Source of the DNA: Basidiobolus ranarum
Lineage: Eukaryota
NCBI GenBank assembly: GCA_040143965.1
Contig: JASJQH010006876.1
Coordinates: forward strand, 62,001-92,976
Direction of reading: 5' to 3'
DNA length: 30,976 bases
Positions within the stretch are counted from its first letter, which is position 1. Each line of letters opens with the position of its first letter. This document shows, piece by piece, positions 19,285-29,814 of the stretch. Made by a program: the position numbers and the translations under genes. The notes below the pieces were generated by a model. That model was not told the DNA's origin. It saw nothing but the letters and a program-made list of their open reading frames with translations, and did no database searches.

Positions 19285-19439
19285 TATACGTACCACACCA
19301 TCCATCCCGAGCTCTAAAAAATGTTGGGCCCCAAAGTATTGAGAATTTATGGTATGTCTAAATAGTCGATACAGACTTTATACTTCTTTATCTATCTCTC
19401 TCTTGACTATTACTCTGGTCTTAAAATAGAAATACCCAA

Positions 19440-20960
19440 ATGCATTCTCTCGCTGCTCTTCGTGTATTAGCCAAGCCTGCTGGCCAATTGTTTGTTGGTA
19501 GAGGCATGCCAATTCGCACTTTGTCAAACTCCGCTTTCAGAGGGTTTGCTACTGTAGAGAGCAAAAAGACTGAGGATAGTCAACAGGCAAAGAGTGGCTT
19601 GTCAGCAGCTGCTATCCATTCTAGTGGCCCACTCCGTAACGACTGGACTAGAGAAGAGATTCAATCCATCTATGATTCTCCCTTTTTAGATCTTCTCTTC
19701 CATGCGGTACTTGTTATTTTATGAATCCATTTGGTATATAGTCACTAAAGCAAGTTTAAACTTATAGGCTAAAGTTCACCGTGAGAACTTTAACCCCCGG
19801 GAAGTACAGCAATGTACTTTGTTGAGTATTAAAACAGGTGGTTGTAGTGAAGACTGTGCTTACTGCCCTCAATCTTCTCGCCATACTACTGAGGTCGAGG
19901 CATCAAAGATGTTGGAGCGTGACATAGTGCTTGAAGCTGCTCGTAAGGCTAAGGATGCTGGAAGTACCCGCTTTTGTATGGGTGCTGCTTGGAGAGAGGT
20001 TGGTGGTAAAAAAAGTAACTTTAAGAATGTCTTGAATTACGTCACAGAAATCAGGTATGTAAATAATTTTGACTGTAGCATAATAAGCATCGTTCTAACC
20101 TCTAACCAATTTTTGCAGAGGAATGGGTATGGAGGTATGCTGTACTCTGGGCATGTTGGATGAATCTCAAGCCAAGGCTTTGAAAAATGCTGGACTTACT
20201 GCTTATAATCATAACCTTGATACATCAAGAGAATATTATTCTAAGGTATTGTTATCGTTACGTCTAGATATATCTCGCATGTTAAACTAAAATTAAATCT
20301 TAAATCTAGATTATTACAACTCGTACTTATGACGAACGTCTTGAAACCATTGCTCGTGCTCGTGAAGCTGGTATTTCTGTTTGCTCAGGTGGTATCATTG
20401 GACTTGGTGAGACAGAGGAAGATAGAGTTGGCCTACTCACTACCTTATCTACTCTTCCTGCCCATCCTGAAAGTGTTCCTGTCAACGCTCTTCTCGCTGT
20501 TAAAGGAACTCCTTTAGAAAACCAAGAGGTACATTTACGAAGTCTTTTGAATTCAATATCCTTTATCTAACGCTTATCTCTATCTAGCCTGTTAATGTAT
20601 GGGATATGGTTAGAATGATCTCTACCGCTAGAATTATTATGCCTAAGTCTATGGTTCGCTTATCTGCAGGCAGAGTTCGCTTCTCCCAACCTGAACAAGC
20701 CCTCTGCTTCTTTGCTGGTGCCAATTCCATTTTCACTGGTGATAAATTATTGACCACTCCTAACAACGAATTCACTGACGATCAACTTATGTTCCAAACC
20801 TTAGGCAAGTTATAATTTATTTTCATTAACTCCATCATTATGTTTTACTCATACCCTCAAAGGCCTTGTTCCTAAGCCCCCCAAATTTGAACAAAGCTCT
20901 TGCAGTGGAGGATGCAGCCACTCTGATGCCGAGCCAAAGCACGCGGACGCTGCCAATTAA
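19440..20960 (+). CDS. BIO2: Biotin synthase (radical SAM) with mitochondrial presequence; 5 introns, the last GC-AG
   Basis: CSEDCAYC radical-SAM motif, [46 protein letters not shown] and [14 protein letters not shown]. Arg/Ala/Ser-rich N-terminus. Confidence 0.96.
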
Positions 20961-21798
20961 ATACCCAAGTAAAAGCGCATATGTACACATCATTCATCTA
21001 TTTTCACGCTGGGTCTGGTCCAAAAACATCACCTTTGCATCATCAGTACACTAGACAACAATATTCAATATCGAATACCCCGACCTTTATTTATTTCTTG
21101 ATTTTAGTTAAGCGATTTATAAACAACGATCTAGTTATTGCAAAACCCGTTCGCTACGTTAAAAATAGCTTATTAAATGAATAAAATGATATATGAATAT
21201 ACATCGTTGACATTTCATCACCTTGGATAGATTTTGTTCCGGTTTTTCAGAATCTATGAATATTCTGTTCTACGACTTGTAGATCGTCATTTTGCATGTA
21301 ATAGAATGCCGGTTCTGGTGGGAGTTCAAGTTTTCCTCTCTTTGGATGCGTTAACTGGGTTCCTCCCATTTCTATAACATTTTTCTACATGCCTTTGCTC
21401 CAAATAAAGTTTAATTAAAATCGAGGCAATCCGCAAATGATACTATATTAGGAGCTTCATCTTGCTAGCGTGTCCTCGACCAGAGGAAATATTCACTTGG
21501 GACAGCTTTCGCGTAACCATGGTGGGATGTTTGAAGGAAAATCTGCACCCCACATTGATCGCTATTAAATAGTGACGTTGTTGGATTACATGTAGGATGT
21601 TGCTGGAGTAAAGAATTCACATGAATTAATAATGATGATTGGAGTATTGTTGATATAAGAACCATTGTTTAAACTCCAATAAGCCGCTGTTTTAATGACA
21701 TTGATTATACCATTATGAAACCTCGGTAAATATCGACAATGTTCGAAATCTATTTAAGTTCTCTTCTTGCGTCGAGTTTCTTCAGAGGTACTACTGAT

Positions 21799-23121
21799 AT
21801 GGTCAATTTGAAAAATACCAACCTTCTGCTTTTGGCCTGCCTTGTGGTGTGTGCTTCCAGTGAGAGAACACAGGCTTCTATAAACCTTCCTAGGGCTCTC
21901 CATTCCAAGTCCAAGGTGTGCAAAAGTACCCTTATTACCAATGGAAACCTCATAGATACCAAAACCAAGAAAACTCAACTTTCTGACATCCTTGTCAGGG
22001 ATGGACGCATAGTAGCCATTAAAAAAGCTGGTACTATTTCAAATCATTTGGCCGCTGAAGTTGTAAATGCCAAGGGTTTGTACGTTACGCCTGGTCTTGT
22101 TGACCTTCACACCCATATTTACTGGGGAGCAACCTATTGGGGAATTGAAGCGGATCCTGTAGCTGCCCGTAGTGGTGTAACTACATGGAATGACGCAGGT
22201 AGCAGTGGTGCTTATACTTTTCCCGGCCTACGCAAATATGTTATTGATCAAACTCGTGCCAGGGCCTTCGTATTCCTCAATATCGCCGCTCAAGGGTTAA
22301 CTTCGCGTACATATGAACTAATCAAAGCCAGTGATGTGGCCGATGTCGAACTTGCTACTTGGACAATTGGTAACAATACTGATGTCATCAAAGGGATCAA
22401 GGTGCGAATGGACTCGGATGCCACCTCTGGTTCAGGTTTAGAAGGATTGAAACGTGCTCGCCAGGTTGCTGACAAGACCAAAGTTCCTATCATGGTTCAT
22501 GTTGGCCATACTCCCCCAGGGATTGATGATATTGCCGAATATCTTGGTAAGGGAGATATTCTAACCCATTGTTTCAATGGACATGAGAATCGTTTAATTG
22601 ATGAGAATGGCCAGCTGCGACCAGTTGTTCACAAATTGAGAGAGAAAGGAGTTCACTTCGATGTTGGACATGGTGGAGGTAGTTTTGATTACCTAGTGGC
22701 TGAGAAAATGATAGCTGCTGGCTTTTTGCCCGATTCAGTTAGTTCTGATTTACATCAGATCTCCACTCTTGGTAGCGCCCAAGATCTTCCAACAGTTCTC
22801 TCAAAGTTGCTTAACCTTGGAATTCCATTGGAAGAATTGATCGCTAAAGCTACCTTAGTCCCAGCTAGAATTCTTGGACATCCAGAATTAGGCCGCCTTC
22901 AGGTTGGTGGTCCAGCTGATATTGCCATTTTCAAATTAGAAAAAGGACATTTCAATTTCACCGATAATACCGGTAATAAACGCAACGGCACAATGAGGAT
23001 AGTAAATACTCATACATTCAGGGATGGAGTCCCTATGTTACAAGTTGAAGCTGCACCACCTGCTTCTTGGGCTCTTAGAGATGCAAAGGTGGTTTCTGGA
23101 GCTAAGCCTCCCACCATCTAA
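21799..23121 (+). CDS. Intronless metallo-dependent amidohydrolase (bacterial dihydroorotase-like / Atu3266-EF0837 deacetylase type) with an N-terminal signal peptide
   Basis: PGLVDLHTH (HxH), GVTTWNDAGSSG, IKGIKVRM (candidate carboxylated Lys), MVHVG, DILTHCF, FDVGHG, SSDLH and PADIAIF. Hydrophobic N-terminus MVNLKNTNLLLLACLVVCASS from the ATG at 21799. Confidence 0.88.
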   Translation: MVNLKNTNLLLLACLVVCASSERTQASINLPRALHSKSKVCKSTLITNGNLIDTKTKKTQLSDILVRDGRIVAIKKAGTISNHLAAEVVNAKGLYVTPGLVDLHTHIYWGATYWGIEADPVAARSGVTTWNDAGSSGAYTFPGLRKYVIDQTRARAFVFLNIAAQGLTSRTYELIKASDVADVELATWTIGNNTDVIKGIKVRMDSDATSGSGLEGLKRARQVADKTKVPIMVHVGHTPPGIDDIAEYLGKGDILTHCFNGHENRLIDENGQLRPVVHKLREKGVHFDVGHGGGSFDYLVAEKMIAAGFLPDSVSSDLHQISTLGSAQDLPTVLSKLLNLGIPLEELIAKATLVPARILGHPELGRLQVGGPADIAIFKLEKGHFNFTDNTGNKRNGTMRIVNTHTFRDGVPMLQVEAAPPASWALRDAKVVSGAKPPTI

Positions 23122-23314: not shown

Positions 23315-24054
23315 TCAAAGATAGCCTTTTCCACGACAAACCGGACATATAGAAGGCGCAAATGTGTTTGCTAGACTAGATATGATAGGGAGGTGAACGG
23401 AAAGAGTATCATTGCCTTGACCTAAACAGATTATTAGTTTGGGCTCGCTTAATTATTTAAAGGCATTCACTTACCTTTGCATTTGTAACATGGACGACCA
23501 TTCACAACATAAACTCCAGGTGCAATAGTGACTCCTGGTTGGTATGCTCCTGAGTGAATCAATTGTTGTCCATATGGGCAATGGGAACAAAGTTTTCCGG
23601 GTCGTTTCCAACCTTTATTCCCACAGTGCTTACAAACAAAGTTAAAGTTCATTTGAACGTTAGGTGGAGCCATATAACCAACAGGTCGATACTGATTATA
23701 TCCAGTTACTGGTACTGGCGGTTGTAAAGGTATAGAACCCGGGAAAGCATTGGGTGGTATGTTGGGATTAAGATAAGGATTTTGTTTTTGGGTATTTGGA
23801 TTCTGACTTGGGTTATAATATGAAGAGTTTGAAGGACCAGGTTGGTAATATTGTGAGTAATTTTGTGCTGGAGCGTGTTGATTTTGAGTGTTGTGTTGAT
23901 ATGGGTTTCCATTAGGTGATTGTTGCTGGGGAGTATATGCGCTTTGACTGGTACCTGCTGCAGGATATTCTGGATAAGGCGTATATGGAGGAGGAGCCTC
24001 CGTGGGTGGGACCTCATCGTTCATATTTTGTGAAAGCCCGTTGTTTGGATTCAT
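23315..24054 (-). CDS. HUA1-like proline-rich protein with a PPxY motif and DnaJ-type CxxCxGxG zinc finger; intron 23422-23474
   Basis: APPPYTPY, a Pro/Gln/Tyr/Asn-rich region, CKHCGNKGWK, CSHC, CYKCKGQG and a spliced C-terminal CPVCRGKGYL*. Confidence 0.75.
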
Positions 24055-24592
24055 ATTTTAGAATGGATAGAGTTGTCTTTTCAGTTCGAACAGTTTGGTT
24101 TTATTCATATTCCTCAACTCTGATCTGGAACTACTAAATAGAACATGCCAAGACTTGAAATTCTAAAATGAGATATATCAACGCACGTGATTGTCGGTAC
24201 AGGTTGAAGGCTGCATATGAGACATTTATGTATGAATAGTTAGCATTTTACAAGTAATTTTGCATACTAAATAGGCAAACAAATTCTTCAGAGCTTCTTG
24301 AGCAAGTGCGCCATAAACTAGTACAATATTTAAATGATCCGGGACATTTGATTTTATATCGTTTGAAACTGAAAGACGATTGTATCTACATACAGTACAT
24401 TAGTGATGAGTATGTGGTAAATAAAAGTGATTTAAAATGCCAAGTGAACGATTTGGGTGTAAATATGCCAGAGAACTTGAAGTCGACCATCAAGAAATGT
24501 CCAGGAATAGGACAAAACAATATTTTAGCTGATAAATGTAGTTGGTATAGTAGAAATCTATGTAAAGTTGTCTCATAATTTAGAATGGTATT

Positions 24593-26760: not shown

Positions 26761-26983
26761 GTTATAGATAAAATACGTTGTACTACGGCCACTTCATATT
26801 CTGGAATATATCAATCCACGCTGTAGATTTCCTGTTTAGGCATTCTATCAAGCTCGAATGGTACCGATACACAAGTCTAAGAGCGGTAAGATGAGTCAAA
26901 GATTGTAGGTTTCTTTCTTAAAAACTGACAACCTGTCTATACAACAAATTTAACACTACTCGGTGGTAGATAAGCACTCAATT

Positions 26984-29814
26984 ATGGCATACCTACCGAA
27001 GCGTTTTCTTCCTCATCAAGTATTTGCTGCTAATACAGATGTAGGAAAGACTATCTTCTCTACTGCATTATGTCGTGGCGTTGCAGCAAGATATCCCAAC
27101 AGCTCTATTTATTACTTAAAGCCTGTTCAAACTGGTTATCCTGTGGATAGCGACGCTAGGTAAGAATTAGCATGTCTTTTGAACCGACTTACTTATTGGT
27201 TTGCTCACTCCGCCCATTCTTGCTAATATTCAGGCATGCCAAGAAATACTGTCCTAGCATAACTGCCGCTGATACCCTTTACACATATAAGGACCCAGTA
27301 AGTCCCCACATTGCTACCGTTAACGTAAGCCCTACTCCTTTCATGTTGAAATTACGATTCATGCCGACCAAATTGATTTATTTTGACTCATTTGAAAACA
27401 ACAGCCACCCACTGATGTCAGTGTATTGGAATCTGTACGTACCAAAATTCAAGAATACGCACAAGAAAGCAAGGGAAAAGATGCCTTTATGTTTCTTGAG
27501 ACCGCCGGAGGTACGTTTAAAAAGTATCACTTTCTATTCTATTACGAGTGACGATATAACACTTTTATTTATTATCTCGAATGTAGGAGTAAATAGCCCA
27601 ATAATGTCAGGTTGGAATTAGTTTAAATTCGTATGAAGTCCCCTTTACATACTTACTTGAATTGACTATATTATAGGAACGTTACAATGCAACTTTTATC
27701 GTCCATTGCGACTTCCCACTGTGCTTGTTGCTGATTCAAAGCTTGGAGGAATTTCTACTACCTTGTCCTCCTTTGAATCCTTATATGTCCGTGGATACGA
27801 TGTGAATACTGTATTATTGTTTGAGGATGAGAGCTGGAAAAACAATGAATTCCTTGCCAAACAACTACCAAATGATATTCGAGTATTTTCAATCCCCTCT
27901 CCTCCGACTCGTGGATCCAATAATGATGATTTCAAAGACATGAGCGAATATTACTCTCGTTTAGATAAGGTGTTTCAATCTGTTGCGGAACATCTCAAAG
28001 ATAAGGGTGACAAAAGAATTGAGGGGCTGATGGAGATGGAGAATAAAACAAAGGACATTATCTGGTGGCCATTTACCCAGCACCACAATGTCAAGAATGT
28101 TACCGTCATCGACTCGGCTTATGGGGATATGATGGTTACATTAAATCCCAAAACAAAAGACTCCAAGGGTGACTCGAATCTGTTTACCGAAAAGTTTGAT
28201 GGATGTGCTAGTTGGTGGACTCAAGGTCTTGGCCACGGCTCCCCTTCTTTGAGTATGGCTACTGCCCATGCTGCTGGTAGATATGGCCACGTTATGGCTC
28301 CCGAGTGCACCAATGAACTTTCTTTGTCCTTGGCAGAGAAATTGATTCATACTGTTGGTAAAGATTGGGCTCAACGTGTATACTATTCAGATAATGGAAG
28401 TACTGCTACTGAGATTGCACTAAAGATGGCTCTCAGACACACTGCTAATAAACATCAGTTATCTACTGGTACTGATACGAACCGTAATATTGAGATTATT
28501 GGCTTGAAGGGAAGTTATCATGGAGATACTATAGGTGCCATGGATGCATCCGACCCTAACGTGTACAACGACACAATTCATTGGTAAGTTTGCCTGTCTT
28601 TATTTTTGTTTCACATTAAATATTCACCTCTTTTTAAATGATAATCAGGTACCAACCTAAAGGTTTCTGGTTTGATCCCCCAAATGTGTCTATGAAGGAC
28701 GGGGTTTACAATGTTCACATTCCCAAAGAATTCAAGTATGACTCCGCAGAAGAAAAATTCTCTTCTTTGAGCGGTGTATTTGGCGATCGCTCCAAGAGCA
28801 AACTTGCTAGCTTTTACAGATCATATATTGATGATACTTTGAACAAGCTTATAAAGCAGGAAGGAAGACGCTTTGGAGCTTTGATGATGGAGCCTATTCT
28901 CATGGGTGCTGGAGGTATGATCTTTGTTGATCCTCTGTTCCAGAAAACTTTGGTAGAAGCAGCGCGGGATCTAAAATACAAGGACAATACCGAGAAAGGC
29001 ATTCCCGTCATTCTTGATGAAGTATTTACTGGATTCTGGCGCCTTGGAAGAAGAAGTGCAGCAGAGATCCTTGGCGTGGTAATGTTTTTACATTTTTAAG
29101 AATTGCTTGACAATATTCAATTAATCTTTTGTCATTTCAAGAAACCTGACATTGCTGCCTATGCTAAGCTATTGACCGGAGGTCTTGTCCCACTGGCCGT
29201 GACTTTGACTAGTGAAGAGATATTTAAGTCATTCTATTCTCCCAATAAGCACGATGCTCTATTACATGGCCATTCTTACACTGCACATCCAATCGGCTGC
29301 TCGGTTGCACTTCAATCTATTAAAGAATATGAACAGAAGCATAGCTCGCAATTAACCCTTTCCTCCAATGCATTAAATCAACTTTCTGATAAGGATTGGT
29401 ATATTTGGAATCCTGAGGTGAGTATATTTATTTTAGATATTGATATTGGCTGAAGGTATTGATCATCTTTTCAAATTAGACCGTGCAATATATTTCACAT
29501 TTGCCAAATGTTCAAGGGGTTGTTTCTTTGGGCACTGTATTAGCCATTGAACTGAAGGACGCCGAAGGAGCTGGTATATAGCATTGAATGGCATATGTGA
29601 AGCAATCAGCTTCTAACATTATTATTTTATTGTAGGTTACACCTCCAACGTTTCCAAGGAGTTTATTCAACATATTCGCAACCTAGATAACAATATGCAA
29701 ATATTTGCTCGTCCCTTAGGAAATGTTGTCTATATAATGGGATCCATTGTTACCACGCCTGAGCAGGTAGCTCAACTTGAGAAAACCATCTTGAACGCAT
29801 TGGAACACCGTTAA
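26984..29814 (+). CDS. BIO3-BIO1: Bifunctional dethiobiotin synthetase / DAPA aminotransferase (BioDA, BIO3-BIO1 fusion; 8 introns)
   Basis: DTBS part: ANTDVGKT, YLKPVQTG, ETAGGVNSP and SKLGGISTT. Aminotransferase part: IWWPFTQH, DGCASWWTQGLGHG, SDNGSTATEIALKMA, YHGDT, LDEVFTGFWRLG, AKLLTGG (PLP Lys), HGHSYTAHP and ARPLGNVVY. Confidence 0.96.

Follow-up and report, generated by a model that had tools for sequence, protein, structure and literature searches.

The DNA analysed here, hereafter the window, is a stretch of 30,976 nucleotides from Basidiobolus ranarum (contig JASJQH010006876.1, positions 62,001 to 92,976), and it carries at 21799-23121 on the forward strand a gene for an amidohydrolase of bacterial type. 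We read this gene as the outcome of one old bacterium-to-fungus transfer that is shared among zygomycetes, encoding a bacterial-type two-metal hydrolase to which a leader was later attached in one fungal lineage, and we put the probability of this reading as a whole at roughly 0.72. The donor would have been a bacterium near today's Chloroflexota and the recipient an early zygomycete fungus. After entry, the gene would have been inherited with losses, or passed from fungus to fungus, in Mucoromycota and the Basidiobolus/Conidiobolus lineage, staying free of introns while its composition turned host-like.

The gene is intact and, judged from its sequence, looks functional, with the family and ligand set as first described. 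It runs for 440 uninterrupted codons plus a stop, inside a stop-to-stop frame (21730-23121, forward strand) of 463 codons; given how often stop trinucleotides occur in the window (0.059), so long an open run has a probability of about 6e-13. In-frame ATGs stand at 21739 (460 amino acids) and 21799 (440 amino acids), and the start codon is ambiguous between them. The automatic gene call in the protein collection starts at 21739, which lies 60 nucleotides upstream of 21799 and has an A at -3; the gene model of Basidiobolus meristosporus starts at the position matching 21799. GC content at third codon positions (GC3) is 0.357, inside the 0.195-0.422 spanned by nine neighbouring exon pieces, and the flanks are AT-rich intergenic DNA (GC 0.374 and 0.249). 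The parts of the gene, with residues counted from 21799, are:

21799-23121, forward strand: amidohydrolase coding sequence without intron, from end-to-end alignment with bacterial homologues and the family model NF006689
21739-21798, forward strand: in-frame upstream extension from the alternative ATG, giving 460 amino acids (MFEIYLSS...), with a purine at -3 for both ATGs
21799-21861, forward strand: signal-peptide-like leader, residues 1-21, with K5 in the n-region, the h-region LLLLACLVVCA (9-19) and A-S-S before E22, from Kyte-Doolittle hydropathy and the predicted local distance difference test (pLDDT)
21862-21927, forward strand: linker, residues 22-43, between leader and domain, conserved with B. 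meristosporus and with pLDDT below 50
21928-23040, forward strand: catalytic amidohydrolase domain with composite beta domain, residues 44-414, from NF006689, Pfam and Foldseek
22108-22116, forward strand: H104-x-H106, the first metal-ligand pair, from alignment to PDB 2ogj and fungal invariance
22399-22401, forward strand: K201, the expected carboxylated bridging lysine, invariant and aligned with the K of GLKVR in 2ogj
22498-22500, forward strand: H234, metal ligand, on the same two grounds as the first pair
22567-22569, forward strand: H257, metal ligand, likewise
22747-22749, forward strand: D317, metal ligand and general base, likewise

By its sequence, the product is a member of the amidohydrolase superfamily, in the Atu3266/PRK09237 branch of the group formerly called cog3964. 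The 440-residue protein matches Pfam Amidohydro_1 over residues 95-390 (E 4e-19) and scores 421 bits against a curated cut-off of 371 with NF006689 (PRK09237, 'amidohydrolase/deacetylase family metallohydrolase', an NCBIfam equivalog model), residues 44-414 aligning to profile positions 5-371 of 383. Sister models stay below their cut-offs (TIGR03583, EF_0837, 289 bits vs 432; NF009060, PRK12394, 289 vs 442), and PF22647, the EF_0837-like composite domain, matches weakly (26 bits, cut-off 27). Sequence matches in PDB are 2ogj (E 6.9e-65), 8wzy (1.7e-56), 2ics (2.7e-49) and 8je0 (3e-48), and the ESM Atlas returned the same family together with bacterial clusters. An AlphaFold2 model built from the 13-sequence fungal alignment (predicted template modelling score, pTM, 0.80; mean pLDDT 76.3) has the distorted (beta/alpha)8 barrel with composite beta domain, and the first four Foldseek matches to it are 8je0, 8wzy, 2ogj and 2ics, with target-normalised template modelling (TM) scores of 0.85-0.91. 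The ligands H104, H106, K201, H234, H257 and D317 align to identical residues in 2ogj and, like H291 and H319, do not vary across the 13 fungal sequences compared. The sequence-only reading had described a single-exon gene of host-adapted composition, with a complete binuclear-metal ligand set (HxH, K, H, H, D) and membership of the Atu3266/EF0837 group rather than identity with fungal URA4, and all of this is borne out.

Among the closest known proteins, Atu3266 of Agrobacterium (2ogj) shares a full-length sequence match, the same fold and identical metal-ligand residues; it is only about 33% identical by structure alignment, and the fungal gene adds a leader plus linker of about 43 residues. 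EF0837 of Enterococcus (2ics, TIGR03583) has the same fold and ligand pattern but represents a sister branch, as the missed TIGR03583 and NF009060 cut-offs indicate. The best structural matches, 8je0 and 8wzy ('A novel amidohydrolase'; E 1e-33, target-normalised TM 0.86-0.88), are only 27-30% identical to the fungal protein, and a literature search found no paper on them. Dihydroorotase (pyrC, or fungal URA4) belongs to the same superfamily and matches in the N-terminal beta-strand region, but no pyrC model reaches its cut-off; we rejected this identity, the dihydroorotase models covering only about residues 42-120, the first beta-strands, with 36-58 bits against cut-offs of 279-786 (best, 58 vs 576). 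A metal-dependent bile-salt hydrolase (PMC13081902), a 945-residue Amidohydro_3 protein, was likewise set aside as belonging to another branch. The deposited B. meristosporus protein lacks 54 residues (window residues 146-199, 22234-22395) that are found in 12 of 12 other fungal sequences; the gap takes in barrel strand 155-161 of the AlphaFold2 model and is probably a wrongly called intron in that annotation.

The case for an old, shared transfer comes from homologue searches and a tree. Three word-index searches (their queries being the protein of the window, a 13-sequence fungal profile and the protein of Conidiobolus) were taken to the best 120 of several thousand matches each. Thirteen fungal proteins are named among the matches listed: those of B. 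meristosporus, Conidiobolus coronatus, four Umbelopsis, Calcarisporiella thermophila, Halteromyces, Hesseltinella, Absidia, Gongronella, Jimgerdemannia flammicorona and Bifiguratus adelaidae. All remaining named matches listed are bacterial, mostly Chloroflexota (Ktedonobacteraceae, Thermomicrobium, Sphaerobacter, Roseiflexus, Oscillochloris). Neither Dikarya nor any eukaryote other than zygomycete fungi is named among those best 120 of each search, in a collection that includes the eukaryote-wide eukprot. The B. meristosporus protein is 72% identical to that of the window overall and 87% over shared columns, and the window protein is 47-55% identical to bacteria against 51-54% to Umbelopsis. 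An exhaustive profile-free search gave 6848 relatives at E <= 0.001, in which the next representative past the cluster holding the fungal and Chloroflexota sequences is 47% identical; the named members of ten outgroup clusters are Actinomycetota or Chloroflexota. With one genome per prokaryote species, the best loci among the matches listed are from Sphaerobacteraceae, Chloroflexota and Chloroflexia, at 45-48% identity.

For the tree, 70 rows were hand-picked from about 270 proteins (14 fungal including the window, 40 thinned Chloroflexota-type and 16 outgroups; the longer-start, 460-residue version of the window gene was left out) and analysed over 404 columns with IQ-TREE under LG+C20+F+G4 with posterior mean site frequencies (PMSF). 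The 14 fungal rows, from ten genera, form one clade with support 100/99, and fungi plus the 40 Chloroflexota-type rows split from the 16 outgroups, also at 100/99. Within the fungi, Jimgerdemannia branches first and the remaining rows hold together at 100/97; the window pairs with B. meristosporus, both join Conidiobolus, and Umbelopsis joins Cunninghamellaceae, each at 100/99. The fungal clade was recovered by FastTree (169 rows, support 99) and by a quick IQ-TREE run as well. Since the 14 fungal homologues fall in one clade and come from zygomycete genera assigned to two phyla, the transfer is old and shared, and the organism of the window inherited the gene rather than capturing it itself. 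The idea that a fungus had acquired a bacterial gene therefore stands for the type of gene, the fungal rows grouping with a Chloroflexota-dominated clade within a bacterial family, but not for an event that was recent or private to this organism. The expectation of few fungal homologues failed on the same clade. Broad vertical distribution across fungi, which the sequence-only reading had named as evidence that would speak against transfer, holds in part: the gene is broadly distributed among zygomycetes, but Dikarya are missing from the matches listed.

The second step in this history is the leader. About 43 residues precede the point, near residue 44, where NF006689, the bacterial homologues and the confident part of the structural model all begin. 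This agrees with the earlier description of some 40 extra residues with a hydrophobic core ahead of the usual domain start. In the model, pLDDT stays below 50 over residues 1-40, where a short helix spans 8-15, and LLLLACLVVCA is the 11-residue maximum of hydropathy in the protein (mean Kyte-Doolittle 3.27). Inspected by hand with translation from 21799, the leader has the parts expected of a secretory signal peptide: a short n-region with a single lysine (K5), an h-region at 9-19 that falls within the usual 7-15 residues, and small residues at -3 and -1 in A19-S20-S21 before E22. All three Basidiobolus/Conidiobolus sequences have a leader, and their hydrophobic maxima are 3.27 (window), 2.44 (B. 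meristosporus) and 2.06 (Conidiobolus coronatus, whose leader reads MNLPSLIFGLLLSTCQA). A leader is absent in six of six other fungal and three of three bacterial sequences examined, where the maxima are all <= 1.80 and fall within the domain, the exception being Gongronella, whose maximum belongs to an N-terminal extension that is itself doubtful. Because it occurs only in the three Basidiobolus/Conidiobolus sequences, we take the leader to have been added after the transfer. There is thus good circumstantial evidence, drawn from the sequences, that it is an endoplasmic reticulum (ER) signal peptide gained after the transfer. In outline, some 20-40 residues resembling a cleavable ER signal peptide would have been added at the N-terminus in this lineage only, with cleavage probably after A-S-S21, and the enzyme is probably exported through the ER in Basidiobolus and Conidiobolus. 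It would then work outside the cytosol, whether secreted, in the cell wall or in the vacuole; the bacterial relatives would act inside the cell on imported solutes.

It is also possible, though we think it distinctly less probable, that the leader is not a cleaved secretion signal, either because 21739 is the true start and the hydrophobic stretch serves as a membrane anchor or in some other role, or because the true start is farther downstream, which would leave the leader untranslated. The ATG at 21739 stands in a good context and is the one that the automatic call uses. Three N-x-T sequons had been listed alongside the leader, and they are present (NNT192, NFT386, NGT396), but 2000 shuffles of the protein gave a mean of 2.6 sequons and 51% had at least three; being at chance level they carry no weight, and we dropped them as evidence for secretion. 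On the other side, leader and linker show protein-level conservation between the window and B. meristosporus, where the gene model takes the second ATG as its start, and the leader of Conidiobolus, classic in form, looks independent. Small residues come after an h-region of 11 residues, and the arginine-rich amphipathic pattern of the mitochondrial type is not seen in the leader. We keep to a probably exported enzyme for this lineage.

Other fungal termini deserve a remark here. The Gongronella butleri protein has a 40-residue N-terminal extension with an F/L-rich segment, HFLHFFLFSFI (Kyte-Doolittle 1.72), unlike its closest relatives, which may reflect a mis-called start or a separate gain. 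Leaderless Mucoromycota orthologues have conserved C-terminal cysteines, ending in -CC in four of four Cunninghamellaceae and in -HMC in four of four Umbelopsis; the ending is absent in the window protein, B. meristosporus, Conidiobolus, Calcarisporiella and Jimgerdemannia. Such an ending could be a lipidation or metal site.

Several observations count against the history that we propose. The ultrafast bootstrap had not converged (correlation 0.950), and a deviant amino-acid composition is flagged for the window protein and Conidiobolus. An approximately unbiased (AU) test did not reject a tree in which the 40 bacterial rows are held together (delta lnL 20.6, p-AU 0.19), so fungi may be sister to the Chloroflexota-type clade rather than nested inside it. 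The same test marginally rejected holding the 11 Mucoromycota rows together (delta lnL 13.2, p-AU 0.023), which makes an imperfect fit with plain vertical inheritance from a shared zygomycete ancestor. The searches cover the best 120 matches each, below which there may be remoter fungal homologues, for instance in Dikarya. A start at 21739 would bury the hydrophobic stretch 28 residues in. Finally, gene neighbourhoods in bacteria, described below, vary and are weakly informative on the substrate. They fit a cytosolic enzyme trimming a small polar compound after its import.

The maximum-likelihood sister of the fungi is a Ktedonobacteraceae-like trio (72/96). As the 40-row constraint is not rejected, we infer a donor near Chloroflexota without naming a group; an exact donor was considered and given up as beyond the resolution of the tree.

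A different route would have the gene enter Mucoromycota first, the Basidiobolus/Conidiobolus lineage then receiving it from another fungus in a second transfer instead of inheriting it from a common ancestor. The rooted tree would suit it, with the Basidiobolus/Conidiobolus trio placed after Jimgerdemannia and among Mucoromycota (the node at 100/97), as would the marginal rejection of the Mucoromycota constraint. Against this, the Mucoromycota group was defined after the tree had been seen, the long branches and deviant composition fall in exactly these rows, inner fungal nodes are weak (68/52), and the place of Basidiobolus in the species tree is itself disputed, near Mucoromycota or near Zoopagomycota (PMC12592215). 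We regard a second transfer as unlikely, yet it deserves to be kept in mind beside the single shared transfer.

Two further alternatives fare much worse. That Basidiobolus alone took up the gene recently, from a bacterium of gut or soil, would suit a gene without an intron in a genus where, according to Tabima et al. 2020 (PMC7466969), 2-5% of genes are candidate transfers and 61% of those are intron-free; it is very improbable given the single clade of 14 sequences from ten genera, a protein no closer to bacteria than to Umbelopsis, and a fully host-like GC3. Equally hard to credit is the vertical inheritance of an ancient eukaryotic gene, without any transfer and with loss from nearly all lineages: presence in several zygomycete orders does make the gene old in fungi, but no named eukaryote besides zygomycete fungi appears among the matches listed, and within a large family of bacteria the fungal clade attaches to a single bacterial clade (100/99). 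That bacterial contaminant reads were joined to fungal DNA in the assembly is next to negligible; no observation speaks for it, GC3 and overall composition match those of the fungal exons on either side, the flanks are eukaryote-like, an independently sequenced Basidiobolus has an orthologue with the same leader and linker, and the nearest bacterium is only about 50% identical.

What the shared enzyme does can be proposed from its family. We think it very probable that the protein is an active metallohydrolase, and we hold the deacetylase/esterase class a little below even odds. Two divalent metals would be held by H104/H106, carboxylated K201, H234, H257 and D317, and would activate a water for attack on the carbonyl of a small ester or amide; in the likeliest reaction, a compound resembling a hydroxy acid, a sugar or an amino acid would lose an acetyl group or a comparable small acyl group. 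Carboxylation of K201, like the substrate class and metal content, is assigned by analogy with the superfamily. Acetylated alpha-hydroxy acids such as acetyl-(R)-mandelate are said to have been reported as substrates of Atu3266 by Ornelas and colleagues in 2013. We know of no physiological substrate for the Atu3266/PRK09237 family, and a literature search on the family name and substrate found nothing useful. In bacteria, sugar-type ABC (ATP-binding cassette) transporter parts lie within about 5 kb of the homologue in four of the eight closest Chloroflexota loci examined (L001, L003, L007, L008). Directly upstream of the homologue are a short-chain dehydrogenase (L004, L007) or two aldo-keto reductases (L003); L002, L006 and L011 had no informative neighbours, and several contigs are truncated. 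A luciferase-like monooxygenase and an M32 carboxypeptidase were also seen among these loci (L003 3421-12404, L004 6252-7802, L007 496-1380).

That early-diverging fungi carry bacterial genes, often with signal peptides, is well described. According to Ciach et al. 2024 (PMC11291939), TargetP signal peptides occur in 33% of xenologs of early-diverging fungi against a background of 7.7%. Beyond the Basidiobolus figure quoted above, lack of introns in transferred genes exceeds 50% across 44 early-diverging fungi, and host-like composition is given as a general trait of such genes (both PMC11291939, PMC7466969). The amidohydrolase resembles the transfers that these papers describe in being an intron-free metabolic enzyme of host-like composition with a probable signal peptide gained after transfer; it differs in being older and more widely shared than the Basidiobolus-specific cases that they stress. 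The term 'amidohydrolase' is absent from the main text of both papers, whose supplementary gene lists may include the gene. Mildly new, in our view, is the two-step history, an old shared transfer and then a lineage-specific leader, in a family without a known natural substrate. It separates two events that are usually lumped, the old shared acquisition and the later, lineage-specific gain of a secretion-type leader, and adds a well-anchored case of bacterial metabolic gene flow into early-diverging fungi, with native genes beside it in the assembly, an orthologue in a sister species and a tree. If secretion proves true, a cytosolic bacterial deacetylase would have been turned into an extracellular fungal enzyme. 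A fungal, probably extracellular, version could help to find the physiological substrate of the family. The shared transfer may also serve as a marker of relative time or relationship for Basidiobolus.

We find it tempting, though rather unlikely to be right, to go further: a single Chloroflexota-like gene, always intron-free, might have received different addresses in different lineages, an ER signal peptide in Basidiobolus/Conidiobolus and a leaderless form with a cysteine tail (-CC/-HMC) in Mucorales and Umbelopsis. If so, this would be a natural experiment in re-localising a foreign enzyme, and the Basidiobolus copy among Mucoromycota copies would be a shared-transfer marker for the disputed placement of the genus.

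The surroundings of the gene are fungal, the amidohydrolase lying on the same assembled stretch as intron-containing fungal genes, in a source contig listed at 92,976 bases. The neighbouring features are:

19425-20815, forward strand: upstream neighbour, a biotin synthase split by short introns, from Radical_SAM and BATS profiles
23315-24057, reverse strand: downstream neighbour, a P/Q/N-rich protein with CxxC motifs and a 53-nucleotide intron at 23422-23474, from pattern match
26954-29814, forward strand: dethiobiotin synthetase-like (AAA_26) and class-III aminotransferase regions, apparently fused in the BIO3-BIO1 manner, from Pfam

In the biotin synthase, Radical_SAM profile positions 2-58, 78-119 and 122-163 and BATS positions 17-86 fall on four separate stop-bounded pieces (19768-20163, 20099-20290, 20310-20570 and 20588-20815), and consecutive pieces are in different frames; the gene therefore has at least three short introns. 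About 200 bp separate the downstream gene from the amidohydrolase, and a 53-nucleotide GTAAGT...TTTAG interval (23422-23474, reverse strand) joins its pieces 23467-24057 and 23315-23452, on pattern match only. Both immediate neighbours are thus split, in agreement with the earlier statement that they contain introns, and farther downstream an MRS2-like magnesium transporter is in at least two pieces. A Pfam search gave no family for the protein at 23315-24057, which ends in repeated CxxC motifs (CKHCGNKG, CSHCP, CYKCKGK, CPVCRGKG).

A biotinidase-like role, tied to the biotin genes on either side, was entertained and rejected, there being no biotin gene beside the homologue in the bacterial loci examined. 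As an observation of its own, the two sets of biotin genes (19425-20815 and 26954-29814) lie on the same strand about 6 kb apart, and between them stand the amidohydrolase, the P/Q-rich CxxC protein and the MRS2-like transporter.

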